A stretch of DNA of 62,606 nucleotides, from the NCBI GenBank assembly GCA_007375675.1, contig VMEU01000004.1, forward strand, positions 1-62,606, in the 5' to 3' direction. Source of the stretch: Parcubacteria group bacterium Greene0416_39 (GTDB lineage Bacteria > Patescibacteriota > Minisyncoccia > Minisyncoccales > UBA10102). Shown here one piece after another: positions 12,624-51,606 of the stretch (position 1 is its first letter; each line of letters opens with the position of its first letter). A model generated the notes under the pieces. The model was not told the origin of the DNA, ran no database searches, and was given only the letters and a program-made list of their open reading frames with translations. A program made the position numbers and the translations under genes.

Positions 12624-12643
12624 TATGCATCTAACGAGGGCTA

Positions 12644-12664
12644 TACAAAGGTCCGTCCTTTGTA
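12644..12664. repeat. REP-like hairpin TACAAAGG-TCCGT-CCTTTGTA (copy 1)
   Basis: Perfect 8-bp stem with a 5-nt loop, directly downstream of the transposase stop. Confidence 0.85.
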
Positions 12665-12665
12665 G

Positions 12666-13319
12666 TTATTCGAGGAGGAGAGAGGCAATATCTTTTGGAT
12701 ATTCTTCTAGCTCTTCTACAAAAACTTTATATTCTTGTTGCGGAAATTTTTGAGAAAAGAAAGCAAATATTTCATTCGTATCTACCCAATCTTGTTTTCT
12801 CTTTCCTAGATAGTTTGGGTAGCTCGAGTACGGATAACTACACAAAGGTCCGTCCTTTGCAAGTAGTTCTTTGGGATTTTGGTGTATGTATTTTGATACA
12901 TATACAAATTGTTCATCTCTTTCTATTAAAACTGCTTTGTATCTTCCTTGGAAAAGCGGGCCTACCCGTTGATATGTTCTATTAAAATATCCTGAGTAAC
13001 TTGTTGCAAGAGCTCTCATAAATTTTTCCATCCCCCTCTCCACGAGATTTTTTATCAGCAGATGGAAGTGGTTTGGCATAAGGCAATATGCCAAAAGGTG
13101 TACTTGCTTATTGCAATTTAGTGGTTTTCTTCGAGGGATTATCTCTTTAGGATTTTTGAGATCCTGGTGTTCTGGCGGGAGCAAGTATTCTTTGAGAAAA
13201 TAAAGAAAGGTCCTATAGTCTTTTTCGGTAGGAAAGATGTTTTGCTTTGCTACTCCACGATTATAAATATGGTAGTACCCGCCCTCCACAAAGCTCTTTA
13301 TTACATTTTTTGCAGGCAT
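12666..13319 (-). CDS. IS200/RAYT-like Y1 (HuH) transposase
   Basis: HuH motif (MPNHFHLLI) and YIHQNP tyrosine motif. Start taken at MPAKN (13319). Flanked by CAAAGG-TCCGT-CCTTTG hairpins. Confidence 0.8.
   Translation of the reverse strand: MPAKNVIKSFVEGGYYHIYNRGVAKQNIFPTEKDYRTFLYFLKEYLLPPEHQDLKNPKEIIPRRKPLNCNKQVHLLAYCLMPNHFHLLIKNLVERGMEKFMRALATSYSGYFNRTYQRVGPLFQGRYKAVLIERDEQFVYVSKYIHQNPKELLAKDGPLCSYPYSSYPNYLGKRKQDWVDTNEIFAFFSQKFPQQEYKVFVEELEEYPKDIASLLLE
12836..12866. repeat. REP-like hairpin (copy 2, inside transposase CDS)
   Basis: AACTAC-A-CAAAGG-TCCGT-CCTTTG-CAA-GTAGTT. It encodes ...AKDGPLC... on the minus strand. Confidence 0.8.
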
Positions 13320-13376
13320 ATCTTGAGGTGAATATATGAACTCTGATATAATAATATAAGATATAAGAGGATTATG

Positions 13377-13393
13377 CAAAGGTCCGTCCTTTG
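13377..13393. repeat. REP-like hairpin CAAAGG-TCCGT-CCTTTG (copy 3)
   Basis: Identical 17-mer located between the transposase start and the ASCH gene. Confidence 0.85.
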
Positions 13394-13402
13394 TATTATG
13401 CT

Positions 13403-20827: not shown

Positions 20828-21571
20828 ATGGAAATTAGCTTGAAGCCAGAAATCATAACGTCGTTCCTTGGAATTCCTATTTCCAATAGTTTAATACTTT
20901 CTCTCATAAGCGCTTTCTTGCTTGTGGCAGGCGGTTTTGTTGCGGTAAGGTCTTTGCAGATTGTGCCCCGTAAGGTTCAGAATGGAGCTGAAATGATCTT
21001 GGAAAGCCTTTTGAGTTTTATGGCAGGAGCTTTGGGAAGTGTGGAGAGGGCAAAAACTTTCTTCCCCCTTGTTGCCTCTATTTTTCTGTTCATTCTTTTC
21101 AACAACTGGCTCGGAGTTCTCCCAGGAACCGGGTCTCTGGGCGTTACAGAACTTCATCAAGGGAAAGAAGTTTTTGTCCCCTTTTTCCGTTCTGCCAACA
21201 GCGACTTAAATACCACTCTTGCCCTGGCTTTAATTTCCGTTCTTGCTATTCAGTTTTACGGCATCAGGAAATTAGGGTTCTTCTCGCATTTGTCAAAGTT
21301 CTTTGCTTTTCACAAAGGGCCTCTGCAGGCATTTGTGGGGCTGCTTGAATTGATTGGAGAGTTTGCAAAAGTACTGTCTTTTTCCTTCAGGTTATTCGGC
21401 AATATCTTTGCAGGAGAAGTGTTGCTTCTTATTGTGATGATGCTTGTTCCTTTGCTTGCCCCTTTCCCTTTTATTCTTCTGGAATTCTTCGTGGGCTTTA
21501 TCCAGGCGCTCGTTTTTGCTATGCTTACGTTGATATTCCTCAAGGTCGCAACCGAAACGGTCGAGCATTAA
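20828..21571 (+). CDS. atpB: F0F1 ATP synthase subunit a
   Basis: Multi-pass membrane protein with FSFRLFGNIFAGE (conserved Arg helix). First gene of the atp operon. Confidence 0.92.
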   Translation: MEISLKPEIITSFLGIPISNSLILSLISAFLLVAGGFVAVRSLQIVPRKVQNGAEMILESLLSFMAGALGSVERAKTFFPLVASIFLFILFNNWLGVLPGTGSLGVTELHQGKEVFVPFFRSANSDLNTTLALALISVLAIQFYGIRKLGFFSHLSKFFAFHKGPLQAFVGLLELIGEFAKVLSFSFRLFGNIFAGEVLLLIVMMLVPLLAPFPFILLEFFVGFIQALVFAMLTLIFLKVATETVEH

Positions 21572-21881
<310 letters not shown>

Positions 21882-21882
<1 letters not shown>

Positions 21883-36607: not shown

Positions 36608-37219
36608 ATGGAATTTGTATTTCTTCTATTCGTTCTCGTCATTTCCGTGGTGGTCCACGAGGTTTCCCATGGGGCGGTTGCCAATTCTTTGGGCGACCCT
36701 ACGGCAAAAAACGCAGGCCGTTTAACCTTAAACCCCATTGGCCACGTTGATCCTGTGGGCTCTCTTTTGCTTCCATTTCTTTTGATTCTTTCTGGCGGGC
36801 CTGTGATTGGCTGGGCAAAGCCGGTTCCAATAAATCCTTTTATGCTCAAGAATCAGACTTGGGCTCCAGCCTTAGTGAGCCTGGCAGGGCCTGGTTCTAA
36901 TCTTGCATTGGCGCTTGTGTTTGGGCTTCTTGTGCGTTTCCTTCCATTGGAAACTTTAAGTCCTCTTTTTTCTGGCGCCCTTGTTTCTGTTGTTCAGCTT
37001 AACTTATACCTTGCGCTGTTTAACCTTGTTCCCATTCCGCCGCTTGACGGCTCCCACCTTTTGTTTGCGTTTCTCCCAAAATCTCTTGAGCCCCTCAAAA
37101 TGTTTTTGGCGCGGTACGGATTTTTCATCCTTCTCTTTCTCGTGTTTCTCTTCCCGCCCTTCTTGTCATTTCTCTCGTTCCTCGTGAGGACTCTTCTTGT
37201 TGTTTTTGTTGGAGCCTAA
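36608..37219 (+). CDS. Site-2 protease family (peptidase M50) membrane metalloprotease
   Basis: HEVSHG (HExxH) in a TM helix, and [18 protein letters not shown] at 36602 is an alternative start. Confidence 0.8.
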
Positions 37220-37224
37220 CTTTA

Positions 37225-37253
37225 TTGACAATACCCTGCATCTTTGCTACATT
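37225..37253 (+). promoter_or_regulatory. Promoter TTGACA-17-TACATT, 7 nt upstream of rpsL ATG
   Basis: Hexamers at 37225-37230 and 37248-37253. The ATG is at 37261. Confidence 0.5.
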
Positions 37254-37260
37254 TTTCTGT

Positions 37261-37671
37261 ATGCCTACAATTCATCAACTTCTGAAAAAAAAGAGAAAGC
37301 CGCTTGCAAGCAAGAGCAACACTCCTGCTTTGACTTTTGGGTTTAACGTGAAAAAGAACCAGCCCGTTGAATACCCGTCTCCTTTTAAAAGGGGAGTGTG
37401 CATTAAGGTATTTACGACAACTCCAAAAAAGCCAAACTCTGCTTTAAGAAAGGTTGCAAGGGTGCGATTGTCCAACGGCATGGAGGTAACGGCATATATT
37501 CCAGGAGTAGGCCATAATCTTCAAGAGCACTCTGTGGTGATATTGAGAGGGGGAAGGGTGAAGGATTTGCCTGGCGTGAGATACCACATTGTTCGAGGCA
37601 TGCTTGACGCCTCGGGCGTTGAAGGGAGAAAACAAGGGAGATCGCAATACGGAACAAAAAAGCCCAAGTAA
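37261..37671 (+). CDS. rpsL: 30S ribosomal protein S12
   Basis: [13 protein letters not shown]..., [30 protein letters not shown]. Confidence 0.95.
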
Positions 37672-37756
37672 AATGCAAATCCGCAAATGACTGCGAATGT
37701 ACAAATACGAGTATTCGCGGCATTCGCATAGATTTGTAGATTCGCATTATATTTTT
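37672..37756. repeat. Palindromic intergenic element, copy 2 (rpsL|rpsG)
   Basis: AAATGCAAATCCGCAAATGACTGCGAATGTACAAATACGAGTATTCGCGGCATTCGCATAGATTTGTAGATTCGCATTAT... It fills the whole spacer. Confidence 0.9.
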
Positions 37757-38224
37757 ATGCCAAAACTCAAATTCAAAAAGCATGTTCTTGCTCCAGATAC
37801 CGTGTATGGCAGCGTCATGGTAGCGCGGTTCATCAACAAAGTGATGCAAAAAGGCAAGAAAGCAACTGCAAGAAAAATCGTGTACGACGCGTTTGCATTG
37901 GTTCAAAAAGAATTGAAAAAAGAACCCATTGAAATATTTGAAAAAGCGATTGAAAACGTTGCTCCGCTTCTCGCCGTTAAATCAAAGAGAGTTGGAGGCG
38001 CAACCTACCAGGTTCCAGTGGAAGTGAAAGGAGACAGAAGGGTGGGATTAGCCATGCGCTGGATCTTAGAATCTTCCCGAAAAGGGAAAGGGAAGCCCAT
38101 GGCGCAAAAACTTGCCCAAGAGCTGCTGAATGCCTACAAGAACGAAGGGTCAGCAGTAAAGAAACGGGAAGAAACGCATCGCATGGCCGAAGCCAACCGT
38201 GCATTTGCACATTTCGCTTGGTAA
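37757..38224 (+). CDS. rpsG: 30S ribosomal protein S7
   Basis: Start at [21 protein letters not shown] and [12 protein letters not shown]-like C-terminus. Confidence 0.95.
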
Positions 38225-38230
38225 TACTGT

Positions 38231-40336
38231 ATGTCCCGCCTCTATCCCATAGAAAAATACCGAAATATTGGAATTATTGCCCACATCGATGCAGGGAAAA
38301 CCACAACCACCGAGCGCATTTTGTTTTACACGGGAGTTTCCCACAAGCTGGGAGACATTGACGAGGGAACTACCGTGATGGACTGGATGGCGCAAGAAAG
38401 AGAACGGGGGATCACCATTACTTCAGCAGCTATTACGTGTTTTTGGATTCGTACGAGAGACGTGGGCAACAAAGAAAAGGAACATCGCATTAATATTATT
38501 GATACTCCAGGCCACATTGACTTTACGGCCGAGGTTCAGCGATCTTTGCGAGTGTTAGACGGAGCAGTTGTGGTATTTGACGGAGTCGCGGGAGTAGAGC
38601 CCCAGTCTGAAACCGTGTGGCGCCAGGCAGATAAGTTTGGAGTTCCAAGGATATGCTTTATCAATAAGCTTGATAGAACCGGAGCTTCATTTGAAAAGGC
38701 TTTTCATTCTATTCAGAGTAAACTAACTCCCAACGCAGTAGCTCTTCAGTTTCCCATTGGCGAGGAAGATGCGTTTTCTTCCATTATTGATCTCTTGGCG
38801 ATGAAGGCTTACACCTTTGAAGGAGAACTGGGCTCTCAAGTAAAAGAAGCAGAGATTCCTGTCTCGATGCTTGCTAAAGCAAAGGAATGGAGGCAGAAAC
38901 TCGTGGAAAAAATTGCGGGAGAAGACCAGGGTTTGTTAGAAGCGTATATTGCGGGATCTGAGATTTCCACAGAAAAACTCCGGGCAGTGTTGAGAAAAGC
39001 TACCTTAAACAATACTCTTATTCCCGTGTTCACCGGTTCTTCTCTAAAAAATAAAGGAGTTCAGCTCGTGCTTGACGGCGTGTTGGATTATCTTCCAAGC
39101 CCCGCTGATTTGCCTTCAGTAAAAGGCATTGATGTAAAAACCTCCCAAGAGATTACCCGTTCTCCAAAAGACGAAGAGCATTTTTCAGCGCTCGCGTTTA
39201 AAATTGCGTCTGATCCTTATGTGGGAACTCTTACGTATTTTCGCGTGTATTCAGGTTCTCTGCAAAAAGGTTCGTATGTTTTAAACACAATAAGCGGAGA
39301 AACAGAGAGAATCAGCAGAATCTTTCGCATGCACGCCAACGACAGAGAAGAGGTGGACGATCTCTTTGCGGGAGACATTGCCGCAACCGTTGGTTTGAAA
39401 GATACGAGCACTGGGCATACCCTGTGCGATTCAGCTGCTCCCATAATCTTGGAACAGATTTCATTTCCAGACCCTGTTATTTCCATTCGCATTGAGCCAA
39501 AAACAAAGGCAGACCAGGAAAAGATGGGTCTTGCCTTGAAGCGTTTGTCTGATGAAGATCCGACATTCCATGTGAAAGGAAACCTTGAAACAGGCGATAC
39601 CCTGATAGCTGGCATGGGAGAGCTTCATCTCGAAATTATTGTTGACCGAATGAAACGGGAGTTTGGCGTCCAGGCAAACGTGGGAAGGCCCCAGGTTGCC
39701 TACAAGGAAACCATAAAGAAAGAAGCCACAGCCGAAGGGAAATACGTAAGGCAGTCAGGGGGTAAGGGGCAATACGGCCACGTGTTTTTGAAGGTACAAC
39801 CCAAGGCAAGAGGAGAAGGGTTTGAATTTGTAGACGAGATCAAGGGAGGCGCCATTCCCAAGGAGTTCATCTCTCCGGTGGAAAAAGGAATCAAAGAGGC
39901 AATGGACAAGGGGATCTTGGCAGGGTACCCTCTTGTGGATCTTCAAGCAACCTTGTTTGACGGTTCCTTTCACGAGGTTGACTCCTCTGAATTTGCTTTT
40001 AAGATTGCTGCTTCCATGGCCTTGCAAGATGCGGCAAAGAGGGCGGGTTTGGTGCTCTTGGAACCTGTGATGTCGCTTGAAGTTATGATCCCTGCTGATT
40101 TTTTGGGAGACGTGATTGGAGACATTTCTTCAAAACGAGGAAGGATTGAAGAAACAGAAGACAAGGTGAATTTAAAAATCATAAAGGCAAAAATTCCATT
40201 AGCTGAGATGTTTGGGTATGCAACCACTCTTCGCTCATTGACAGAAGGAAGAGGAACCTTTACTATGGAGTTTGACGCTTATGAGGAAGTTCCTGGCAAT
40301 GTTTCCCAGGAGATCATTGAAGGAAAAAGACGATGA
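38231..40336 (+). CDS. fusA: Elongation factor G
   Basis: NIGIIAHIDAGKTTTTERIL and DTPGHIDF. 701 aa. Confidence 0.97.
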   Translation: MSRLYPIEKYRNIGIIAHIDAGKTTTTERILFYTGVSHKLGDIDEGTTVMDWMAQERERGITITSAAITCFWIRTRDVGNKEKEHRINIIDTPGHIDFTAEVQRSLRVLDGAVVVFDGVAGVEPQSETVWRQADKFGVPRICFINKLDRTGASFEKAFHSIQSKLTPNAVALQFPIGEEDAFSSIIDLLAMKAYTFEGELGSQVKEAEIPVSMLAKAKEWRQKLVEKIAGEDQGLLEAYIAGSEISTEKLRAVLRKATLNNTLIPVFTGSSLKNKGVQLVLDGVLDYLPSPADLPSVKGIDVKTSQEITRSPKDEEHFSALAFKIASDPYVGTLTYFRVYSGSLQKGSYVLNTISGETERISRIFRMHANDREEVDDLFAGDIAATVGLKDTSTGHTLCDSAAPIILEQISFPDPVISIRIEPKTKADQEKMGLALKRLSDEDPTFHVKGNLETGDTLIAGMGELHLEIIVDRMKREFGVQANVGRPQVAYKETIKKEATAEGKYVRQSGGKGQYGHVFLKVQPKARGEGFEFVDEIKGGAIPKEFISPVEKGIKEAMDKGILAGYPLVDLQATLFDGSFHEVDSSEFAFKIAASMALQDAAKRAGLVLLEPVMSLEVMIPADFLGDVIGDISSKRGRIEETEDKVNLKIIKAKIPLAEMFGYATTLRSLTEGRGTFTMEFDAYEEVPGNVSQEIIEGKRR

Positions 40337-40497
40337 CTATCAAAGAACTAAAAACTTTACTTGACCAAGCAAGAGGGAAAATCATTGTGGTGGAAGACGA
40401 AAAACCCATCATGGTGATCACGCCATACGAGGAACAGAGCTTGTCTCCAATGCCTCAAGAAAAAGCGGGGTTGACACTTGATGATTTGCCGCTATAA
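40333..40497 (+). CDS. Small ORF (54 aa) between fusA and tuf, hypothetical
   Basis: ATGA overlap with the fusA stop. MTIKELKTLLDQARGKIIVVEDEKPIMVITPYEE... has a Phd/YefM-like flavour. Too short for the ORF track. Confidence 0.35.
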   Translation: MTIKELKTLLDQARGKIIVVEDEKPIMVITPYEEQSLSPMPQEKAGLTLDDLPL

Positions 40498-40498
40498 T
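40471..40498 (+). promoter_or_regulatory. Consensus promoter TTGACA-16-TATAAT upstream of tuf
   Basis: TTGACA at 40471-40476 and TATAAT at 40493-40498. It is embedded in the end of the 54-codon ORF. Confidence 0.55.
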
Positions 40499-40536
40499 AC
40501 AAATAACTAATAACAGATAACCAATAACAAAATACT

Positions 40537-41730
40537 ATGGCAGGAAAATTTGAGAGAACAAAACCTCACGTGAACGTTGGCACCATTGGCCATGTTGACC
40601 ACGGAAAAACAACCTTGACCGCCGCGATTCTTCACGTATTGCGGCTTAAGGGGTACAACGCATCAGAAAAGTCGGTTGACCAAATTGATTCAGCTCCAGA
40701 GGAAAAAGCGCGAGGCATCACCATTAATATCAGCCATTTGGAGTATGAAACCGAGAAGCGCCACTACGCGCACATTGACGCTCCAGGGCACGCAGACTAC
40801 ATTAAGAACATGATTACGGGAGCCGCCCAGATGGACGGCGCCATTCTTGTGGTTTCTGCTCCAGACGGCCCAATGCCCCAGACGAGAGAACACATTCTTT
40901 TGGCAAAACAGGTAGGATTGCCATCTATTGTCGTATTTTTGAATAAGTGCGACGCAGTTGATGATCCTGAAATCATTGACCTTGTGGAGTCTGAAGTGAG
41001 AGAACTTTTAAAGAAATACAACTTCCCAGGAGATACTGTTCCCGTGATTCGTGGATCCGCATTGAAAGCGTTGGAGGCAAAGTCTGCAGATGAGGAAGCG
41101 GCAAAGCCGATTGTTGAACTCATGAAAGCAGTGGATGAATATATTCCAGAGCCGCAAAGAGAAGTAGACAAACCCTTTTTGATGGCAGTGGAAGACGTGT
41201 TTTCTATTGAAGGGAGAGGAACAGTTGCAACAGGGAGAGTGGAACGAGGCGTAGTTAAGGCAAACGAGGAAGTGGAGCTCGTAGGATTGAGGCCTACCAC
41301 CAAAACCGTTGCAGTCTCTATGGAAATGTTTAACAAGACCCTAGACGAGGCAAGAGCAGGGGACAATGTTGGCATTCTATTGAGAGGTTCAAAGAAAGAA
41401 GACATTGAGAGAGGCCAGGTTTTGGCAAAGCCCGGAACGTCAACTCCCCACACTGAATTTGAGGCAGAAGTGTACGTTCTTGCCAAAGAAGAAGGAGGCC
41501 GCCACACTCCGTTCTTTACAGGATATAAGCCTCAGTTCTATTTCCGCACCACTGACGTGACAGGAGACGTTACCTTGCCCACAGGCACTGAAATGGTGAT
41601 GCCGGGAGACACCGTGAATGTAACGGTAAAGCTCATTCAGCCCATTGCAATGGAAGAAAAGCAGAGGTTCGCAATCCGCGAGGGAGGAAAAACCGTTGGA
41701 GCAGGCGTAGTTTCTAAAATAGCAGCGTAA
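40537..41730 (+). CDS. tuf: Elongation factor Tu
   Basis: [17 protein letters not shown] and DAPGHADY. 397 aa. Confidence 0.98.
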
Positions 41731-42077
41731 TGCCAAAGGCTAAGCACCAAGAAGAAACGCCAAAGGTAATGCCTCAACAAAAGGTGAGGATCCGTTTAGC
41801 TGCCTATGATCACAAGGTTATAGACGCCTCTGCAAAGCAGATCATTGACGCGGTGCTGCGCGAGGGATGCGAAATTATAGGGCCAGTGCCTCTTCCTACA
41901 GAAATCAGGAAGTACACGGTGAACCGTTCCTCGTTTATTCACAAGGATGCACGAGAGCAGTTTGAAAGCCGCGTCCACAAACGCCTCATTGACATTTTAA
42001 ACCCAACCCAGAAGGTCATTGAGTCCCTCTCAAGTCTCAACATGCCAGCTGGAGTTGATATTGAAATAAAGATGTAA
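41730..42077 (+). CDS. rpsJ: 30S ribosomal protein S10 (N-terminally extended)
   Basis: [21 protein letters not shown]...[21 protein letters not shown]. Confidence 0.93.
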
Positions 42078-42103
42078 TCCTTAATCTAGTTAAGGAACCA
42101 AAG

Positions 42104-42127
42104 AATCGCCAACGGGGCGATTTTTTG
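42104..42127 (+). terminator. Intrinsic terminator after rpsJ
   Basis: AATCGCC-AACGG-GGCGATT followed by TTTTTTG. A second hairpin, TCCTTAA-TCTAG-TTAAGGA, lies at 42078-42096. Confidence 0.65.
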
Positions 42128-42195
42128 TTCTACCTTGACATTTTTTGATATTGAAGGTATATCTATCCTACGTATCCAGATATCAGGAGGGAGTG

Positions 42196-42960
42196 ATGAG
42201 CGCCATGTCGTCCAACAGTACTCCCTCATGGCCGCAGTTGAGGGAGTTATTTCACGAAATGCTTTCTCAATTGTTTGAGGAGGCGAAAGTTGCTCGCGAG
42301 TACGCAGTGTCATATCGGGACTTCAGGGTAGGATGTGCCGGGCTGGCATACAACACGGAAACCGGAAAATGGGAAATCTTTCGGGGAGCGAACCTTAAGG
42401 TGTCGCGGAATGGGCGTCCGGTATGCGCAGAGTCAATTGTGGTACAGGCTGCGCGCGCTAGGGGTTATAATCTCATCATCGGCTTGGGAATTGTGGCAGA
42501 GACGCAACGCGACGATGACAGCGGAGTGGTTCTCGATACCTTGACGCCCTGTGCGGAGTGCCGAGAGACCCTTCTTGCTATCCCAGCCATGAGTCTACGG
42601 TCCCTTATTGCCACGGCAACCCCTGACCTGAGCACCCAAGAAGTTCGCTCTTTTGGTGAGGTCCTCAAGATACACGGCTCGGACGGAAGGTCGTATCCCC
42701 AGACGGCTGATTCTCCCATGTTGGCTGGAGACTTGGATCGGCTCCGTGCAATAGCAAGGGTACGACTCGTTAATTTACTGGAAGTTGCCAATGATCTTCT
42801 CGGCGTGCTCTTGCGTGATTCCGAGACTGCAACGAAGGAAAAAATTGAGCAGTGTAGGAGAAACGCCGAGAAAGAGATCGCAATTGCCCGTGGACTGGGG
42901 ATTGGTAACGATCCAGTGGTGGAGAAGTTGATAAGACGGCTTCATCTCGTGAAGCCATAG
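42196..42960 (+). CDS. Cytidine-deaminase-like protein with ~110-aa C-terminal helical extension
   Basis: SD GGAGGGAG 3 nt before the ATG. YRDFRVGCAG, VCAES (C-A-E) and TPCAECRE (PCxxC) align with tetrameric Cdd motifs. GC is higher than in neighbouring genes. Confidence 0.7.
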   Translation: MSAMSSNSTPSWPQLRELFHEMLSQLFEEAKVAREYAVSYRDFRVGCAGLAYNTETGKWEIFRGANLKVSRNGRPVCAESIVVQAARARGYNLIIGLGIVAETQRDDDSGVVLDTLTPCAECRETLLAIPAMSLRSLIATATPDLSTQEVRSFGEVLKIHGSDGRSYPQTADSPMLAGDLDRLRAIARVRLVNLLEVANDLLGVLLRDSETATKEKIEQCRRNAEKEIAIARGLGIGNDPVVEKLIRRLHLVKP

Positions 42961-42976
42961 GGCGAAATCGTTCGTC

Positions 42977-43016
42977 AAAGAGGCGTCGTCTTGTATGCGG
43001 CGCCTCTTTTATTTGA
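42977..43016 (+). terminator. Intrinsic terminator after deaminase-like gene
   Basis: AAAGAGGCG-15 nt-CGCCTCTTT followed by TATTTG. Confidence 0.6.
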
Positions 43017-43142
43017 ACTGCTAATTACGTTTATATCTCGCTTCGTTTGCGATCGCTAACCAAGCGAGATAGTGCGTATACTATATGCGAGAATAAAGCG
43101 TTTGTTGAAATCGGAGATCAACAACCAGAAGTTAAAAATATA

Positions 43143-43170
43143 GTTAAAACTTACGATCGTAGCTTTTAAC
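43143..43170. promoter_or_regulatory. 28-nt near-palindrome GTTAAAAcTTACGATCGTAgCTTTTAAC upstream of rplC promoter
   Basis: Inverted arms around a TACGATCGTA centre, ending 18 nt before the -35 hexamer. Possible operator. Confidence 0.3.
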
Positions 43171-43187
43171 GATTTTGCCAATTGATG

Positions 43188-43216
43188 TTGACATTTGGTA
43201 TTGGGTCATATATACT
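43188..43216 (+). promoter_or_regulatory. Promoter TTGACA-17-TATACT for rplC operon
   Basis: Hexamers at 43188-43193 and 43211-43216. Confidence 0.55.
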
Positions 43217-43222
43217 CAACCC

Positions 43223-43309
43223 ATGAGGTTCGTCATTGGAGCGTGACGGAAAATAGGAAAGTACTGCCCATGAAATTGATGAGGGGAGTACCCTCGTTTT
43301 TGTTAGAAT
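43223..43309 (+). promoter_or_regulatory. Structured rplC leader with terminator-like hairpin (possible r-protein attenuator)
   Basis: GAGGG-GAGTA-CCCTC plus GTTTTTGTT lies at 43281-43304. GGGGAGTAC can pair instead with GTACTGCCC (43261-43269). Confidence 0.4.
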
Positions 43310-43912
43310 ATGAAAGCTTTGTTAGGGAAAAAAATTGGAATGACGCAGGTCTTTAATGAGAAAGGAGCTACGGTTCCTGTAACCTTGGTGGAAGCAGGAC
43401 CCTGCAAAATCCTTCAGGTGAAGACCAAAGAAAAAGACGGATATGAAGCCGTTCAGTTAGGGTTTGAGTTATTGCCGCAAAGAAAGGTAGGAAAATCCAT
43501 GCGAGGCAAGGAATTCCGATTTATCCGCGAGTTTCGATCAAAAAAGCAGGGAGAAGTTTTTCCTCAACAAGGCGAGAGTGTTGACGCCGCCATTTTTCAA
43601 GAAGGGGATTTAATTGAGATCTCAGGAATTTCCAAAGGAAAAGGGTTTGCTGGAGGCGTGAAGCGATACGGATTTCATGGGAGAAATGCAACCCGCGGCA
43701 CCAAGCATGAACAGCGAACTATAGGTTCGGTGGGTACCTCAAGGCCTGCTCACGTGAGAAAAGGAAAGCGCATGCCAGGGCACTTGGGAGTAGACAGGGT
43801 AACGGTGAAGAACCTCAAGATTGTGAAAATTGACGCTGAAAAAAATGTTGTGGCAATTGAAGGAGCAGTCCCAGGAAGAAGAGGAACATTACTTGAGATA
43901 CGAAGTATTTAG
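43310..43912 (+). CDS. rplC: 50S ribosomal protein L3
   Basis: MKALLGKKIGMTQVF and GKGFAGGVKRYGFHG. Confidence 0.95.
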   Translation: MKALLGKKIGMTQVFNEKGATVPVTLVEAGPCKILQVKTKEKDGYEAVQLGFELLPQRKVGKSMRGKEFRFIREFRSKKQGEVFPQQGESVDAAIFQEGDLIEISGISKGKGFAGGVKRYGFHGRNATRGTKHEQRTIGSVGTSRPAHVRKGKRMPGHLGVDRVTVKNLKIVKIDAEKNVVAIEGAVPGRRGTLLEIRSI

Positions 43913-43916
43913 TATC

Positions 43917-44552
43917 ATGAAAATTTCATTATACAATCGAGAGGGGATTCAAACTGAAGAACTGGAACTTCCTTCCAAAATATTCGACGTTCCTTGGAAT
44001 GCAGATCTCGTGCATCAGGTAGTGGTTTCTCAAATGGCAAATAAAAGAAGGGTGATTGCCCATACAAAAGGAAGAGGAGCAGTTTCAGGAGGAGGAAGAA
44101 AACCCTGGGCCCAAAAGGGTTTAGGACGTGCCCGCCAGGGTTCCATACGATCGCCCCAGTGGAGAAAAGGAGGCGTGGTGTTTGGTCCAAGGAATACGAG
44201 AGTATTTAAGAAAACAATTCCAGAAAAAATGAAGCGAAAAGCGTTGTTTTCTGCTCTTTCAGAAAAGGCAAGAGGCAAGGAGATGATTCTTTTGGAAGAT
44301 TTGCCCCAAGAGTATTCAAAGACAAAAATGTTTCATTCTCTCTTGAGGAAACTCTCTTTACAAGAGAAAACCCTTCTTGTTGCGTACCCCGAGAAGGCAA
44401 AGTTTTTAGCAAGAGCAGCAAGAAATATTCCTTGCACGCTACCAGTTCCTGTAAAAGGGCTCAACGTTCTTGATTTGCTTTCTACAAAGTTTTTTCTCAC
44501 CACAAAAACCGGACTCGAAGAACTGGAAAAAACATTTGGAACAAAACCCTAA
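43917..44552 (+). CDS. rplD: 50S ribosomal protein L4
   Basis: Start at MKISLYN. TKGRGAVSGGGRKPWAQKGLGRARQGSIRSPQWRKGG. Confidence 0.95.
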   Translation: MKISLYNREGIQTEELELPSKIFDVPWNADLVHQVVVSQMANKRRVIAHTKGRGAVSGGGRKPWAQKGLGRARQGSIRSPQWRKGGVVFGPRNTRVFKKTIPEKMKRKALFSALSEKARGKEMILLEDLPQEYSKTKMFHSLLRKLSLQEKTLLVAYPEKAKFLARAARNIPCTLPVPVKGLNVLDLLSTKFFLTTKTGLEELEKTFGTKP

Positions 44553-44554
44553 CC

Positions 44555-44932
44555 ATGCCTTTCTTTAACCCTTTCCAAAAGAACAAAAAAGTTGCCGAAG
44601 CTCGGCTTCAACCAAAAGAAGCCGAGCTTCCACGCGAGAAGAAGCTGGTGAAAGATCCGTCAGGAGTTATCTTAAGGCCCCATGTGAGTGAAAAAGCAAG
44701 CCAGTCTCAAGAGAACAATGAATACGTGTTTGAGGTATTATCTTCTGCCACCAAGCTTATCGTACGAGACGCTGTGAAACGTACGTACGGAGTGGACGCC
44801 TCAAAAGTGAGGATTATTAACGTGAAACCAAGAAAGGTGAGACTAGGAAGATTTCAGGGAACAAAGCCTGGATTCAAAAAGGCCATTATAAAGCTTAAAA
44901 TCGGCCAGAAAATAGATTCCTTATCCGTATAA
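44555..44932 (+). CDS. rplW: 50S ribosomal protein L23 (N-terminally extended)
   Basis: ILRPHVSEKAS...YVFEV...KVRIINV...KKAIIKL. Confidence 0.9.
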   Translation: MPFFNPFQKNKKVAEARLQPKEAELPREKKLVKDPSGVILRPHVSEKASQSQENNEYVFEVLSSATKLIVRDAVKRTYGVDASKVRIINVKPRKVRLGRFQGTKPGFKKAIIKLKIGQKIDSLSV

Positions 44933-44934
44933 GC

Positions 44935-45714
44935 ATGGAACGAATAATCACAAAACATAGGCCCGAAAAAAGATTGCTTATTTCCCTCGCAAAAACCGGA
45001 GGGAGAAACGCAACAGGCCGCATCACCATACGTCATCATGGGGGAGGTTCTCGCATGCTTTATCGTATGGTTGACTTTGGGCAAGAATATCTTGGAGTTG
45101 AAGGGAAAGTGCTTGGGATTGAATACGATCCAAATCGAAACGCATATCTTGCGCTCGTAGATTATGGAGAAAAAGGCAGAGGGTATCTTCTGGCGCCTCA
45201 AGGGGTACACGTTAAAGATACGGTGCTGTGCGCGGAAAAAACAGAGGCAAAAACCGGCAACAGAATGAAACTAGAAAACATTCCAGTAGGAACCATGGTG
45301 TACAATGTGGAGTTAGAACCAGGGAGAGGAGGAAAGATTGTGCGAGGAGCAGGAACATCAGCAAAGCTGATGACCGTTGAAGGCGCGCTTGCTTTGATGC
45401 AACTTCCTTCGGGGGAAGTGAGAAAGGTTTCTTCTCAATGCTTTGCTTCTATTGGAATGGTTTCTAATCCAGAATTTAAAGACAGGGTTATAGGCAAGGC
45501 GGGAAGCAATAGAAACAAAGGATGGCGTCCAAGCGTTCGAGGGACTGCGATGAATCCGGTTGATCATCCTCATGGGGGCGGAGAGGGGAAAACGCCAAGA
45601 GGCATGAAGCATCCCAAGACTCCCTGGGGCAAACCAGCATTGGGGGTGAAGACTAGAAACAAGAAAAAGTGGACAACAAAACTCATTATTTCCCGCCGAC
45701 CAAAGAAAAAGTAA
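44935..45714 (+). CDS. rplB: 50S ribosomal protein L2 (short N-terminus)
   Basis: GGRNATGRITIRHHGGG and MNPVDHPHGGGEGK. Confidence 0.95.
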   Translation: MERIITKHRPEKRLLISLAKTGGRNATGRITIRHHGGGSRMLYRMVDFGQEYLGVEGKVLGIEYDPNRNAYLALVDYGEKGRGYLLAPQGVHVKDTVLCAEKTEAKTGNRMKLENIPVGTMVYNVELEPGRGGKIVRGAGTSAKLMTVEGALALMQLPSGEVRKVSSQCFASIGMVSNPEFKDRVIGKAGSNRNKGWRPSVRGTAMNPVDHPHGGGEGKTPRGMKHPKTPWGKPALGVKTRNKKKWTTKLIISRRPKKK

Positions 45715-45800
45715 AATGCAAATCAACAAATGACTGCGAATGTACAAATACGAGTATTCGCGGCATTCGCATATTATTCGTAAATTCGCATTATATTTAT
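45715..45800. repeat. Palindromic intergenic element, copy 3 (rplB|rpsS)
   Basis: AATGCAAATCAACAAATGACTGCGAATGTACAAATACGAGTATTCGCGGCATTCGCATATTATTCGTAAATTCGCATTAT... Confidence 0.9.
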
Positions 45801-46169
45801 ATGGCACGATCACTCAAAAAAGGACCATGTATTGACGAGAAACTGCTCAAAAAGATGCAGAAGACAAAACCAGGTTCAGGCCAAGCCGTGAAGACCTGGT
45901 CCAGGGACGCGACCATCACGCCCGAGATGATTGGTTTTATATTTGGCGTGCACAACGGGAAAGATTTTATTTCTGTAAGCGTGACAGAAGATATGGTAGG
46001 ACACAGGCTCGGAGAGTTTTCTCCTACGACTAAGTTTGTCAGGCACGGAGGAAGAATGCAAAAAGAATTGGAAGCAAAGGCGGCAGAGGTTCAAGCTCCT
46101 GCAGCTACATCTTCTGGAGTATCATCTCCTGCTCCAAAGTCTAAGAATCCCGCACCCAAGAAGAACTAA
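45801..46169 (+). CDS. rpsS: 30S ribosomal protein S19 (C-terminally extended)
   Basis: MARSLKKGPCIDEKLLKK..., GVHNGKDFISV and GHRLGEFSPT. Ala/Pro/Ser-rich tail. Confidence 0.93.
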   Translation: MARSLKKGPCIDEKLLKKMQKTKPGSGQAVKTWSRDATITPEMIGFIFGVHNGKDFISVSVTEDMVGHRLGEFSPTTKFVRHGGRMQKELEAKAAEVQAPAATSSGVSSPAPKSKNPAPKKN

Positions 46170-46178
46170 TGAAATCGT

Positions 46179-46673
46179 ATGCAGTCTAAAGCTTATCTAA
46201 GGTATTTGAGAATAGCTCCGAGAAAGGTGAGGCTTGTCGCAGATCTTATCCGGGGCAAATCAGTTGAGGAAGCTCAGATCGTTTTGCGTTTTGCAAACAA
46301 GGGTGGAACGACCCCGCTCTTGAAACTTTTAAATTCCGCGGTTGCTTCAGGCGTTCATAATTTTCAGCTTGACCCTGCGAATTTGTATATTGCCAGGATT
46401 CTTGTTGACGAAGGGCCTAAGCTAAAACGGGTGTTTCCGAGGGCAAGAGGAAAAGCAGACCAGATACAAAAGAAAACTTCGCACATCACTCTCGTGCTTG
46501 ACGAAAAAGTAAAGAAAGCTCCTGCGCAAGGGGGGAAAGAGGTGTCAACAACAAAAACGAAGGAAGTTTCTTTTCCTAAAACCGAGAGGCAAAAATTCCG
46601 ACCGCAGCAGGAGATAGAAAAGAAACCACAAGTTGGGAAGAGACTTAGAATGTTTAGAAGAAAAGTGATATAA
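46179..46673 (+). CDS. rplV: 50S ribosomal protein L22 (C-terminally extended)
   Basis: LRIAPRKVRLVADLIRGKSVEEA and RARGKADQIQKKTSHITLVL. Confidence 0.93.
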   Translation: MQSKAYLRYLRIAPRKVRLVADLIRGKSVEEAQIVLRFANKGGTTPLLKLLNSAVASGVHNFQLDPANLYIARILVDEGPKLKRVFPRARGKADQIQKKTSHITLVLDEKVKKAPAQGGKEVSTTKTKEVSFPKTERQKFRPQQEIEKKPQVGKRLRMFRRKVI

Positions 46674-46764
46674 ATTATAATGCAAATTTGCGAATGATAT
46701 GCGAATGCCGCAAATAGTTATTCGCATCATTCGCATAAAATTTGTAGATTAGCATTAGTATTGT
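46674..46764. repeat. Palindromic intergenic element, copy 4 (rplV|rpsC), variant core
   Basis: ...AATGCAAATTTGCGAATGATATGCGAATGCCGCAAATAGTTATTCGCATCATTCGCATAAAATTTGTAGATTAGCATTAG... Confidence 0.85.
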
Positions 46765-47400
46765 ATGGCACACAAGGTTCATCCAAAATCGTTTCGTATC
46801 AAAGAGACCAAAGACTGGAGCTCAAGGTGGTTTGTAAAGAAAAACGTTCCCCAATTGCTCAAAGAGGATTTTCTTATTCGTTCGTATGTAGACAAAAAGC
46901 TCAAAGAAGCCTCCATACAGAATATTGAGGTGGAGAGATTTCCCGGCAAGGTGAATGTAATTATTTTTTCTGCAAGGCCCGGGTTAATAATTGGAAGAGG
47001 AGGCGCGGGCATTGAGCTCTTGAGAAAGGAGATTCAAAAGATTGCGCATTTGGCAAAAGACGTGCGCATTGAAATACAGGAGATAAAGAACCCCTGGGAA
47101 TTTGCTTCTCTAATTGCGCAGTTTGTCGCTTTTCAGCTTGAAAAACGCATGCCCCACCGCAGAACTTTAAAGCAAACGTTGAGCAAGGTTATGGCGGTTA
47201 AGGGGATTGAGGGAGCTCGCATTGAGGTTGGTGGGCGTCTCGGAGGAGCTGAAATAGCAAGGCGAGAATGGCAGCAAAAAGGCAGGCTTCCCAGAGGAAC
47301 CTTGAGAGCCGACATTGACTATTCTTTGAAAGAAGCATATACCAGGTACGGAACCATTGGAGTGAAAGTTTGGTTGTACAAAGGGATGAAATTCGAGTAA
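46765..47400 (+). CDS. rpsC: 30S ribosomal protein S3
   Basis: MAHKVHPKSFRI, GLIIGRGGAGIE (KH domain) and GRLGGAEIAR. Confidence 0.95.
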   Translation: MAHKVHPKSFRIKETKDWSSRWFVKKNVPQLLKEDFLIRSYVDKKLKEASIQNIEVERFPGKVNVIIFSARPGLIIGRGGAGIELLRKEIQKIAHLAKDVRIEIQEIKNPWEFASLIAQFVAFQLEKRMPHRRTLKQTLSKVMAVKGIEGARIEVGGRLGGAEIARREWQQKGRLPRGTLRADIDYSLKEAYTRYGTIGVKVWLYKGMKFE

Positions 47401-47481
47401 TAATTCAAATCTACGAATGACTGCGAATGCCGCAAATAGTATTTGTACATTCGCATAGCATTTGTAGATTAGCATTATATT
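47401..47481. repeat. Palindromic intergenic element, copy 5 (rpsC|rplP), core inverted
   Basis: TAATTCAAATCTACGAATGACTGCGAATGCCGCAAATAGTATTTGTACATTCGCATAGCATTTGTAGATTAGCATTAT. The segment between GCGAATG and CATTCGC is the reverse complement of that in copies 1, 2, 3 and 6. Confidence 0.9.
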
Positions 47482-47886
47482 ATGTTAACACCAAGAAAGA
47501 TAAAATTTAGAAAGTGGCACAAAGGCCGCTCCAAAGGCAATGAAACGAGAGGAAAAGAATTGAATTTTGGAAGCTATGGCTTAAAATCCCTTGGGACTAA
47601 ATGGATTACTGCGCGCCAGCTGGAAGCGGCTCGCCGCGCCATTATGCGCTACCTTAAAAAGGGAGGAAAGGTGTGGACGAGAATTTTTCCCGATAAGCCC
47701 ATTACAACCAAAGGCGCAGAAACTCCAATGGGCGGAGGAAAGGGGGGAGTGGATCACTACGCTTTTCCCATTAAGCCAGGAAGAATTATATTTGAAGTGG
47801 AGGGAATTTCAGAAGGCCTTGCAAAGGAAGCGTTGCGGGAAGCTGCCTCCAAGATTCCTTTGAAGACAAAATTTGTTAAGAAGTAA
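47482..47886 (+). CDS. rplP: 50S ribosomal protein L16
   Basis: [16 protein letters not shown] and RMGGGKG-like PMGGGKGG. Confidence 0.95.
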
Positions 47887-47970
47887 AATGCAAATCCGCA
47901 AATGACTGCGAATGTACAAATACGAGTATTCGCGGCATTCGCATATTATTTGTAAATTCGCATTATATTT
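47887..47970. repeat. Palindromic intergenic element, copy 6 (rplP|rpsQ, where rpmC is expected)
   Basis: AAATGCAAATCCGCAAATGACTGCGAATGTACAAATACGAGTATTCGCGGCATTCGCATATTATTTGTAAATTCGCATTAT... Confidence 0.9.
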
Positions 47971-48204
47971 ATGGCAAAGAAACATCTCATTGGAATAGTG
48001 GTTGGAGACAAGATGGCAAAAACCGTTGTGGTTAAGGTTGAACATTTAAAAGAGCACCCAAAGTATCGCAGGCGATTTCGCGTTCACGAAAGATACAAAG
48101 CGCACGACGAGAAAGGGGAGTATCACGTGGGAGACAAGGTCGTTATTGAGGAAACCCGGCCCATTTCAAAAGATAAACACTGGAGAGTAACCCAAAAGGT
48201 ATGA
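47971..48204 (+). CDS. rpsQ: 30S ribosomal protein S17
   Basis: [17 protein letters not shown]...HPKYRR...[23 protein letters not shown]. Confidence 0.95.
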
Positions 48205-50939: not shown

Positions 50940-51470
50940 ATGCCCATACCAACAACACGAGAACGACGATTTATAAGAAGAGACAAAAGAGACGAGGTTC
51001 CCTCGAGAGTTCTTGAGATTACTCGGGTGACCAGGGTTGCCGCGGGAGGCAAGCACATGACGTTTCGCGTAACGGTGGCGGTTGGAGACCAAAAGGGGAA
51101 GGTGGGCGTTGGCATTGGAAAAGGATTAGATGTGGCTCAAGCAATAGAAAAGGCAACAAGAGCCGCAAAGAAAAACATGATTGTTGTTCCCATTGTAGAC
51201 GGTACCATTCCTCACCAGGTAAAAGTAAAATTTGGGCCTTCTGAGTTGCTCTTAAAACCTCAGAGGCAGGGGAGAGGGCTGGTTGCAGGAGGCGTGGTGC
51301 GTGTCATCTGTGAGTTAGCAGGCATTAAAGACATTTCTGCGAAATTCCTTTCGTCTACGAACAACAAAATGAACAATGCTAAGGTGACCATGGAAGCGTT
51401 ACAAATGCTAAGAATAAAAAACAAAGTTACTCAACAATATGCAACTCCACCAGCTGAAACCCAAGCATAA
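50940..51470 (+). CDS. rpsE: 30S ribosomal protein S5
   Basis: ITRVTRVAAGGKHMTFRVTVAVGDQKGKVGVGIGKG. ATG 50940 is preferred over TTG 50934. Confidence 0.94.
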   Translation: MPIPTTRERRFIRRDKRDEVPSRVLEITRVTRVAAGGKHMTFRVTVAVGDQKGKVGVGIGKGLDVAQAIEKATRAAKKNMIVVPIVDGTIPHQVKVKFGPSELLLKPQRQGRGLVAGGVVRVICELAGIKDISAKFLSSTNNKMNNAKVTMEALQMLRIKNKVTQQYATPPAETQA

Positions 51471-51606
51471 AAGAATACGATATAAACGCATTGGACGAGG
51501 CGGCAAAAAGGGCGGCTCGTCGGGTTGGGGCATTAAAAAGCGCGGAACTTCCCAGCCAAGAATTCGAGAGATTATTAAAAGATACCCAAAACTTCGAGGC
51601 ATATGA
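51439..51606 (+). CDS. rplO: 50S ribosomal protein L15, N-terminal extension only (55 aa)
   Basis: MQLHQLKPKHKRIRYKRIGRGGKKGGSSGWGIKKRGTSQPRIREIIKRYPKLRGI* matches the L15 N-terminus (M.L..LKP...KR.GRG). It stops at the secY start, and no globular domain is encoded. Too short for the ORF track. Confidence 0.6.
   Translation: MQLHQLKPKHKRIRYKRIGRGGKKGGSSGWGIKKRGTSQPRIREIIKRYPKLRGI

Follow-up and report, generated by a model that had tools for sequence, protein, structure and literature searches.

Roughly 80-base palindromes at stop/start junctions in Patescibacteria: a probable family of small non-autonomous mobile repeats

Copies of the element in the window

The window, a stretch of 62,606 nucleotides from Parcubacteria group bacterium Greene0416_39, contains a ribosomal-protein gene cluster in which five intercistronic gaps are filled completely, from stop to start, by copies of one palindromic element. 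A first-pass annotation had placed five copies at these positions, and we confirmed both their coordinates and, by Pfam, the names of the flanking genes (S12/S7, L2/S19, L22/S3, S3/L16 and L16/S17). Scanning with a covariance model yielded exactly six copies in the window (Table 1). The five in the ribosomal cluster scored about 81–98 bits (E 1e-13 to 1e-16) and are 77–96% identical to each other, with copies 1, 2 and 5 reaching 92–96%. On folding, they gave hairpins of ~32 bp with −20 to −34 kcal/mol and z-values of −2.3 to −6.4, in agreement with the hairpin potential proposed earlier; the highest symmetry of all copies is found in copy 3 (−34.1 kcal/mol, z −6.0). Their palindrome cores start 0–5 nt past the stop codon and end 5–9 nt ahead of the ATG.

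The sixth copy, detected by repeat search between genes matching PF00119 and PF00137, folds with −24.7 kcal/mol (z −4.4). Its location at the atpB/atpE junction indicates that the family is not confined to the ribosomal cluster, contrary to the earlier description, as do neighbours such as GroEL, DnaK, DnaJ, PNPase and RNase III elsewhere. The statement that all other junctions measure less than about 10 nt was correct for the run from L3 to S5, but not across the whole cluster, where five long gaps are free of the element. GGAGG is indeed absent from all five cluster copies, which is uninformative because an SD-like motif of any kind is associated with only ~4 of the 32 genes of the region.

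Table 1. Element copies, element-free long gaps of the cluster and the RAYT gene in the window
Feature	Position	Strand	Flanking genes or match	Gap	Score (bits)
Copy 1	37672-37749	+	rpsL (S12)/rpsG (S7)	37672-37756, 85 nt	83
Copy 2	45715-45793	+	rplB (L2)/rpsS (S19)	45715-45800, 86 nt	85.8
Copy 3	46679-46757	+	rplV (L22)/rpsC (S3)	46674-46764, 91 nt	97.6
Copy 4	47402-47477	+	rpsC (S3)/rplP (L16)	47401-47481, 81 nt	80.8
Copy 5	47887-47965	+	rplP (L16)/rpsQ (S17)	47887-47970, 84 nt	86.6
Copy 6	21573-21648	+	atpB (20828-21571)/atpE (21655-21882)	83 nt	81.1
Element-free long gap			S10/deaminase	118 nt	
Element-free long gap			deaminase/L3	379 nt	
Element-free long gap			S5/SecY	132 nt	
Element-free long gap			orf54/EF-Tu	39 nt	
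Element-free long gap			TIM/RNaseH-like	93 nt	
RAYT	12666-13379	minus	PF01797		

Modular anatomy and folding

As a palindrome the element is nested and combines four CRAAT modules with an inverted partner for each: four direct modules of the type (T/A)GC(G/A)AAT, about 8–10 nt apart, are followed by a short apex and four inverted modules, with AT-rich tails (AAATATA...TATATTT). The central stem consists of TGCGAATG/CATTCGCA, and its invariance in the alignment is no independent evidence because the search pattern used to collect the copies fixed that stem; likewise, part of the close agreement of a 25-nt core between lineages may stem from the exact-match pattern. As in MITEs, the ends are inverted repeats, reading TAATGC...GCATTA, CGATGC...GCATCG or TGATGC...GCATCA, and the two termini co-vary. 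In most copies the right arm contains an internal GTAG, in others GTAA or GTAT, the arms being arrays of direct modules and not REP hairpins. Outside the elements, CRAAT shows no enrichment. The apex reads TACAAATAC followed by CCGCGAATAC in copy 1 and is inverted in copy 4 relative to copies 1, 2, 5 and 6; such flip/flop inversion between copies within one genome was seen in two unrelated genomes.

With the four stems in register, 86% of the cells are paired, compared with 24–45% when the arms are slid. Compensatory changes occur at the base of the palindrome (UA15/CG7; AU15/GC10), and mismatches lie at conserved positions (pairs 15–97, 20–92 and 41–72). RNase III sites call for an imperfect duplex of 20 bp or more in the RNA, which the predicted folds provide. 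No terminator-like site was detected on the plus strand at any copy and the base of the stem is A/U-rich, so that the copies do not qualify as intrinsic terminators. The sense strand gave the better fold for 12 copies and the antisense strand for 14 (mean difference 0, p=0.98), with 72 versus 63 G·U pairs. Because both strands fold equally well, we regard the palindrome as a property of the DNA; covariation is present but strand-symmetric, and together with the equal folding it provides no evidence for selection at the RNA level.

Distribution of the family and state of the sites in relatives

A strict sequence pattern search recovered 7 loci in CPR genomes and 31 metagenome loci, and the covariance model identified 45 distinct sites in all. 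The family is also present in Buchananbacteria, Nealsonbacteria, Moranbacteria and other CPR MAGs, at junctions that differ by lineage: among 17 occupied ribosomal junctions, there was no coincidence between lineages. Copies within a genome are 84% identical, those of different genomes 74%. The genes downstream mostly code for ribosomal proteins, RpoA, PNPase, RNase III, GroEL, DnaK, DnaJ and AtpE, with TrmD as a further case. Ribosomal-protein genes account for 10 of the 21 downstream genes outside the window (p ~5e-7 against a 7% baseline), and essential, highly expressed operons are enriched 6- to 8-fold. This bias requires either an effect on the mRNA or targeted insertion.

The copies are flush with coding sequence, lying 0–8 nt past a stop codon, 5–10 nt ahead of a start codon or both. 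In ~21 copies the distance from stop to stem is −2 to 8 nt and that from stem to ATG 5–10 nt, the stop codon nearly always being TAA. All five cluster insertions hit spacers that are at most 17 nt long in relatives, while long spacers make up ~90% of the intergenic bases (p ~4e-6). The copies share the orientation of the gene in 23 of 26 cases (p ~9e-5); RNA-level selection and insertion mechanism cannot be separated as causes because transcription in the window coincides with the probable direction of replication. At locus L008, the element represents the entire spacer between two divergent start codons, and the copies at L024, L019 and L001 have no adjacent upstream gene, that at L024 being combined with another hairpin family into a BIME-like mosaic.

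The sites in related genomes differ in occupancy, as expected for MITEs: they are empty in L039, L040-42, L046 and L047, with a remnant in L040. In the closest relative, whose S3 is 92% identical, they are empty and compact (TAATG; TAATATG), and they are also empty in five more distant relatives. The site of copy 2 is a TAATG overlap in L039 and 4–6 nt long in L040-42, that of copy 3 holds an unrelated 17-nt spacer in L039, and that of copy 4 reads GAG TAA T ATG there. Copy 5 occupies the place of rpmC (L29), since the relatives have the order L16-L29-S17 with overlaps. At S12/S7, L040 retains just 15 nt of the right end together with the S7 gene, which would be explained by a deletion across a GTA microhomology. 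At all tested sites, the genes of the closest relatives without the element are intact. Variation extends to strains, as one (L043) carries a 24-nt tandem duplication of the copy 5 apex, and of the four indels that separate strains in 20.6 kb, three fall within or at copies, although some strain differences may represent MAG assembly errors. Copies are gained and lost at the DNA level, and the compact junctions of the sister genomes correspond to what the first-pass annotation had named as the sign of recent selfish spread. From presence and absence we infer that the element behaves as a small, recently inserted mobile element and not as a conserved regulatory RNA.

Relation to known repeats, mobility and alternative readings

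The whole window gave no Rfam hits at gathering thresholds, nor did 45600-48100 at E<=1. No match was found in plasmids or phages, and no description of the family in the literature. The family is apparently undescribed, and its preference for the stop/start junctions of highly expressed operons is unusual. REP units are characterised by GTAG at the end of a palindrome of 20–40 nt, and REPINs consist of two inverted units. The element shares with these RAYT- (Y1/HUH-) dependent repeats the extragenic palindromes, an apparent lack of target duplication, hairpins in single-stranded DNA, an orientation bias, mosaics with other hairpins (L024), GTAG in the right arm of most copies and a RAYT gene in the window. 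However, this RAYT is accompanied by hairpins of its own (TACAAAGG-tccg-CCTTTGTAG at 12636, 12833 and 13367), which have only a TTTGTAG heptamer in common with the element, and the GTAG of the element is non-terminal and in several lineages gives way to GTAA or GTAT. The earlier view that this gene is no obvious source of the family stands.

The inverted termini of the Correia elements form hairpins that are cut by RNase III, which changes mRNA levels. Correia elements resemble the element as palindromic, non-autonomous repeats of ~100 nt adjoining genes, but are unrelated in sequence, occur in another host clade and have 26-bp terminal repeats, a TA duplication, an IHF site and functional promoters, whereas the element shows no visible duplication, is as a whole a nested palindrome of octamer modules and is concentrated in ribosomal-protein operons. 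These Neisseria elements (CREE/NEMIS) are likewise co-transcribed and likewise differ in presence between close strains (PMC3184786). ERIC/IRU sequences of Enterobacteriaceae are imperfect palindromes of ~127 bp in transcribed intergenic regions that fold in the mRNA (PMC3184786), and their effect on mRNA stability depends on orientation (PMC3184786, citing De Gregorio 2005). They are unrelated in sequence, have TA flanks, lie mostly at 3′ ends and have not been described as enriched in ribosomal operons. MIRUs of Mycobacterium tuberculosis occupy intercistronic operon gaps in a single orientation and abut the stop and start codons on either side. They are tandem direct repeats encoding small ORFs that overlap these codons, whereas the element is present as a single palindromic copy per site, has lengths that are not multiples of three and has no conserved reading frame, its internal ATG...stop frames varying from copy to copy. 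Neisseria REP2 and Borrelia IR repeats lie directly upstream of the start codons of several genes (PMC3184786); these supply promoter, RBS and ATG, while the element has no supported promoter and no RBS.

Taken together, we consider it rather likely that the palindromes are a family of small non-autonomous, MITE/REPIN-like DNA repeats of CPR/Patescibacteria that are moved in trans and kept by stop/start coupling. A trans-acting enzyme recognising the conserved modules would move the element, probably inserting it directly 3′ of TAA without target duplication, as HUH/Y1-type enzymes do on single-stranded DNA. Where copy boundaries could be defined, with empty sites taken from non-ancestral relatives, there was no consistent direct repeat and the left flank was usually TAA. 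We found no transposase, target-site duplication or autonomous parent element for the family, and no autonomous IS with the same termini was seen in ~480 kb of loci. In the mRNA, the geometry suggests that the ~32-bp hairpin would bring the upstream stop and the downstream start within about 10–15 nt of each other, and that a ribosome terminating at the stop would melt the outer stem. Termination-reinitiation coupling, seemingly needed by a host nearly devoid of SD motifs, would then survive the insertion, and we propose that copies therefore persist exactly at stop/start junctions. Other bacteria show 'repeat deserts' over essential genes (PMC3184786), and one would expect a purely selfish element to stay away from essential operons with high expression; without a coupling of insertion to transcription or a benefit from the hairpin, the enrichment has no explanation. 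Of the three options left unranked by the annotation, a selfish element targeting gene gaps fits best over RNA stability or processing and translation decoupling, and the hairpin may still act in the mRNA by bridging stop and start or through stability or processing.

A selected cis-acting RNA module copied around the genome, acting as RNase III-type processing site, segment-specific mRNA stabiliser or factor-binding site, is an unlikely alternative. Phage T7 has such RNase III sites, long imperfect hairpins with internal loops between the cistrons of polycistronic mRNA, and the element resembles them in its long duplex with mismatches at conserved positions. The strong bias to the genes listed above, the constant flush placement, the orientation bias and the eight repeated modules, which suggest a sequence-specific partner, are also consistent with it; with one trans-acting factor, ribosomal proteins, chaperones, ATP synthase and RNA enzymes would make up a single growth regulon. 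However, T7 sites have fixed, conserved positions and act as one-strand RNA, while the element varies in position by lineage and is strand-symmetric. The sense strand has no advantage in folding or wobble pairs, the apex orientation is free, no junction is filled in two or more lineages, the element is missing from every tested site of the closest relatives, whose genes are intact, L040 lost the hairpin at S12/S7 and retained S7, and Rfam gave no match even at E<=1.

We give a lower chance to a horizontally spreading 'expression cassette' for SD-less CPR, in which ribosomes cross the base of the hairpin to the next AUG or a single factor binds and co-regulates the genes. If true, the pre-start hairpin would let terminating or standby ribosomes transfer, as a bacterial counterpart of ribosome shunting; the single-factor variant would co-regulate translation apparatus, chaperones and ATP synthase, and transposition would wire a growth regulon in organisms that have hardly any regulators.

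It is quite improbable that the element acts as double-stranded or cruciform DNA that a nucleoid protein or a topoisomerase binds or cleaves in operons under heavy transcription. The BIME/REP elements of E. coli bind gyrase, IHF and Pol I, and the strand-symmetric palindrome, the module spacing of 8–10 bp, the enrichment in highly transcribed operons and the mosaic at L024 would suit such a site; the apex flip/flop also implies that a cruciform or hairpin forms in the DNA. Against it, sister genomes manage without copies, the element has no known protein partner, the copies are flush with codons instead of spread along operons, and CRAAT is not enriched beyond them.

A portable promoter giving internal starts just upstream of the next gene, from TATAAT- or TAAAAT-like hexamers in the tails, has very little probability. 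Correia elements and Neisseria REP2 carry promoters (PMC3184786), the L008 copy between divergent starts and those lacking an adjacent upstream gene would fit, and copies 3, 4 and 5 have promoter-like hits overlapping their left ends. However, such hits are at chance level in the region (22 found versus 16.5±4.2 expected), −35 boxes would fall outside the element, the distance from hexamer to ATG varies from 3 to 6 nt, and at L008 a good TTGACA-17-TAACAT promoter can be read just outside the element. In the E. coli str operon, the S7 operator lies in the S12-S7 intercistronic region, the position of copy 1, but the idea that each copy would be a gene-specific autoregulatory operator of this kind is effectively refuted by the distribution of the copies, because the same sequence occurs at six unrelated junctions of the window and ~20 elsewhere, non-ribosomal genes included, and is absent from relatives.

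The repeat in the window and its fold

The five stretches reported by the first-pass annotation proved to be whole stop-to-start gaps with the boundaries it had assigned, flanked by genes that agree with Pfam, and their alignment showed 77-96% identity over a core of 76-79 nt. A repeat search together with a covariance model retrieved one sixth copy, and no others, in the window; because this copy lies between atpB and atpE, the element is not specific for ribosomal genes. The annotation had also described all other junctions as compact, which holds within the run from L3 to S5 only; the wider ribosomal cluster contains five element-free gaps of 118, 379, 132, 39 and 93 nt, which hold, for example, a truncated L15 and a terminator and a promoter flanking an inserted deaminase-like gene. 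The reported lack of Shine-Dalgarno sites was uninformative, as just about 4 of the 32 genes of the region carry one; since almost no gene of the cluster has such a site, a role of the element as its substitute cannot be judged from this absence. Gene calling was misled by the copies: S7 was given an extension reaching into the element, a single fused ORF was called for L2 and S19, and some starts were mis-called.

The element is a nested palindrome: four direct modules of the (T/A)GC(G/A)AAT type, with starts spaced by 8, 10 and 8 nt, are followed by a short apex and four inverted partners. Its full consensus reaches into AT-rich tails (AAAATATAATGC...GCATTATATTT), so the apparent spacer preceding the ATG belongs to the element. 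The central stem TGCGAATG/CATTCGCA is invariant across the alignment, which is no independent evidence because all aligned copies were gathered by a pattern demanding exactly this stem. RNAalifold on a MAFFT alignment gave just the stem already fixed by the search pattern; therefore, we used a hand-drawn structure for the pairing statistics. In this four-stem, 34-pair structure, 86% of the cells were paired over 30 sequences, compared to 24-45% with the partners slid, and compensatory changes (UA/CG and AU/GC) occur at the stem base, while three positions are mostly unpaired. Fold energies range from -20 to -34 kcal/mol, and both strands fold well. A K-turn in the internal loop was rejected, as the loop differs between subfamilies.

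Positions of repeat copies, element-free sites and neighbouring features (positions without a locus handle refer to the window)
Feature	Position	Description
Copy 1, S12/S7 gap		85 nt, filled by the element
Copy 2, L2/S19 gap		86 nt, filled by the element
Copy 3, L22/S3 gap		91 nt, filled by the element
Copy 4, S3/L16 gap		81 nt, filled by the element
Copy 5, L16/S17 gap	47887-47970	84 nt, filled by the element; exactly at the expected place of L29
Copy 6	21573-21648	between ATP synthase a and c subunit genes
L2/S19 junction of L039		TAATG, no element
L22/S3 junction of L039		unrelated 17-nt spacer, no element
S3/L16 junction of L039		GAGTAATATG, no element
S12/S7 junction of L040		AAG TAG ATTCGCATTATTATAT ATG, final ~15 nt of the element
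10-nt deletion in L043	L043:929-940 (window 37663-37672)	S12 stop removed; ends at left edge of copy 1
26-nt deletion in L043	L043:8945-8952 (window 45690-45715)	L2 stop removed; ends at left edge of copy 2
24-nt tandem duplication in L043	L043:11150-11175 (window 47911)	apex of copy 5
Substitution cluster, L043 vs window	37199-37278	just 5' of rpsL and rpsL 5' end
Diverged relative of the element	L020:6662	four TACGAA and four TTCGTA modules
Repeat copy with coupling ATPase gene downstream	L034:265-1464	nearly identical to copies 1 and 5
Half-elements joined to second hairpin	L024:8283-8330; L024:1525-1570 (minus strand); L009:3740-3810	second hairpin repeat CCCGCCAAAGTTTTG...CAAAATTTAGGCGGG
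RAYT gene with its hairpins	12636-13395, minus strand	IS200-like Y1 transposase; PF01797, E 1.5e-10
L29 gene in L16-L29-S17 of relatives	L040:11040-11225; L041:8696-8884; L042:11040-11237; L047:8846-9034	
rplO (L15) remnant	51439-51602	~54 N-terminal codons, between S5 and SecY
Deaminase-like gene	42196-42960	inserted between rpsJ and rplC (42078-43339)
Unrelated ~100-nt palindrome	L042:13277-13379	CCTTCGAC..GCTCAGG / CCTGAGC..GTCGAAGG, fills S8/L6
Half-copies of this palindrome	L042:9440-9466; L047:7242-7272	S19/L22
74-nt direct repeats, four	8742-9715	within long ORF 8499-10643
G+C-rich double hairpin, two copies	3001-3041; 6496-6536	TCCCGCGAAGCGGGA

Distribution, gain and loss, and placement

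As far as seen, the element is confined to CPR bacteria. A strict pattern matched CPR MAGs labelled (as deposited) Buchananbacteria, Nealsonbacteria, Moranbacteria and 'Saccharibacteria', as well as 31 metagenome contigs; this exact 25-nt pattern, by which the external copies were located, makes them look more conserved than they are and fixes one asymmetry. Many duplicate metagenome loci were collapsed, and the covariance model gave 45 distinct sites across the window and the fetched loci. Diverged relatives among these sites keep the modular plan, as in L020. We obtained no blastn match to the element in phage and plasmid collections and no match in IMG/VR with the strict pattern; two viral contigs hit by a looser pattern were dismissed as simple GCATTT repeats scoring only ~22 bits. 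No description of the family was found in the literature, and an element from Bacteroidota in a 2026 gLM2 preprint is distinct from it. One copy, on the 2.2-kb metagenome contig L034, lies immediately 5' of a gene for a TrwB/TraD-like type IV coupling ATPase, which hints that the family may also live on conjugative or competence-related DNA. In L024 and L009, half-elements 5' of trmD and rplJ are joined to a second hairpin repeat, forming a BIME-like mosaic.

All five ribosomal copies are present in three assemblies of the same species, which is closest to Candidatus Wildermuthbacteria. Empty gaps in sister genomes had been proposed in the first-pass annotation as the sign of recent selfish spread, and the nearest other relative (L039, S3 92% identical) is indeed compact where the window carries copies. 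Five further relatives with S3 identities of 69-74% are compact at every junction within the fetched sequence, in which the covariance model found no match. Copies are 84% identical within a genome vs 74% between genomes, and the 17 distinct ribosomal junctions occupied include none shared between lineages. This family of palindromic repeats has been inserted recently and repeatedly, and it is structurally unstable. The more distant relative L040 retains the end of an element at S12/S7, the sole intergenic remnant found in a search for further ones; a deletion across a GTA microhomology explains the remnant and also created the new stop codon. Between the window and the same-species strain L043 (GCA_007378945.1), 3 of 4 indels in 20.6 kb fall in or at copies, and the 26-nt deletion turns L2, element and S19 into a single-frame ORF of 402 aa. 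These indels may reflect real hypervariability or MAG assembly errors at repeats. Of the 18 substitutions between both strains, 17 are packed into 80 nt at rpsL, in a pattern resembling either a variable leader or a patch of recombination.

The placement of the element is non-random: it sits flush with stop and start codons and is strongly biased to highly expressed operons. Of 36 strong copies, about 21 separate two co-directional genes, their 5' base lying -2 to 8 nt from the stop and their 3' base 5-10 nt from the ATG; the others follow a stop without a near start or precede a start without an upstream gene, and one (in L008) forms the entire spacer between the divergent starts of orf63 and L27. 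Gene contexts beyond the window were assigned by simple ORF logic and Pfam. The genes downstream of external copies code for ribosomal proteins (L22, L6, S8, L14, L11, L24, L10, L4, L28, L27), RpoA, PNPase, RNase III and TrmD, chaperones (GroEL, DnaK, DnaJ), a TraD-like ATPase and one unknown protein, with GatB and LigA recognised by eye only. Ribosomal proteins make up 10 of these 21 genes (p ~5e-7 at a 7% baseline). In 23 of 26 copies, the outer arms are co-oriented with the gene (p ~9e-5). The five insertions within the cluster all occupy spacers that are <=17 nt in relatives (p ~4e-6), although ~90% of the intergenic bases lie in long spacers. No sense-strand terminator was found at the copies, and promoter-like matches were no commoner than chance in their region. 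DNA-uptake-sequence behaviour was also rejected, the module showing no enrichment outside elements.

Nature and spread of the element

To compare the strands, 26 copies were oriented by their adjoining genes. The sense strand folded better in 12 and the antisense strand in 14 (mean difference zero, Wilcoxon p=0.98), and G·U pairs numbered 72 vs 63, respectively; selection on the sense-strand RNA was rejected on this symmetry of MFE and G·U pairs. Moreover, in the window species as well as in the genome comprising L003, L005 and L036, the apex is inverted between copies sharing the same outer-arm direction, as would be expected if the arms of a DNA hairpin recombined or templates were switched between them. 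Because folding is strand-symmetric and the apex orientation is free, the palindrome is a DNA-level property, unshaped by selection on one RNA strand.

The element resembles Correia/NEMIS and ERIC repeats as co-transcribed palindromic MITEs that work similarly, MIRUs in its intercistronic position flush with codons, and REP/REPINs in its hairpin, orientation bias and apparent lack of duplication; its sequence is unrelated to each of them. Unlike MIRUs, it is neither tandem nor coding, and unlike REP/REPINs, it has no cognate RAYT in the window. No target-site duplication, including the TA duplication of MITE type, appeared at copies with clear boundaries, the boundary walk having stopped at internal loops in many others. 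No Rfam family matched, either over the whole window at gathering thresholds or over 45600-48100 with a cut-off of E<=1. We file the element as a new family among the known "small palindromic mobile repeats", with an unusual distribution.

CPR/Patescibacteria genomes are tiny and streamlined and thought to be poor in mobile or repetitive DNA. Nevertheless, one repeat family common to several CPR lineages repeatedly colonises the most conserved, essential operon, where other bacteria usually exclude repeats. This enrichment runs counter to the "repeat deserts" described for other bacteria (PMC3184786). A trans-acting enzyme recognising the conserved modules would mobilise the element, with an insertion point that is probably immediately 3' of TAA and no duplication. 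The hairpin would then return stop and start codon to proximity with termination-reinitiation still working, which may be why the element persists at junctions. Its enrichment in essential operons calls for either transcription-coupled targeting or a host benefit. The latter is the main rival reading, in which, for example, mRNA stabilisation, processing or shared regulation would explain the enrichment and the element would be a portable post-transcriptional module. If it is purely selfish, translational coupling in these nearly Shine-Dalgarno-less hosts has to cope with an 80-nt hairpin separating the stop from the start, which is informative on translation initiation in such organisms. In practice, strain variation or mis-assembly concentrates at the copies, and these sit within the block of ribosomal-protein genes on which CPR phylogenomics and MAG quality control draw.

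The RAYT of the window was rejected as mobiliser, its flanking hairpins being different from the element, as the first-pass annotation had remarked; the RAYT region contains three REP-like hairpins of its own (TACAAAGG-tccg-CCTTTGTAG), one of them within the ORF towards its 3' end. A 549-aa ORF of L008, flanked by diverged palindromes, was not retained as a candidate transposase, as its N-terminus lacks obvious transposase features.

Further irregularities of the cluster and window

The rpmC gene for L29 is missing between rplP and rpsQ in the window species, and tblastn over the whole 62.6-kb window found no L29; relatives with S3 identities of 69-73% contain L16-L29-S17 with overlaps. The rplO gene is truncated in all three assemblies of the species, compared to 137-138 aa in relatives; the species has either lost L15 or encodes it at another locus. 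The cytidine/dCMP-deaminase-like gene has its own terminator-like hairpin, TTGACA promoter and GGAGG site. Because relatives carry different cargo between S10 and L3 (Zeta toxin, Fic, unknown ORFs), this position represents a variable islet. In the Wildermuthbacteria relative L042, a further ribosomal junction is occupied by an unrelated palindrome (-26 kcal/mol, z -3.5), with half-copies at S19/L22 in L042 and in L047; more than one family of hairpin inserts therefore occurs at such junctions. Elsewhere in the window, a G+C-rich double hairpin occurs twice, and the 74-nt direct repeats suggest a repeated, possibly Cys-rich, protein module.
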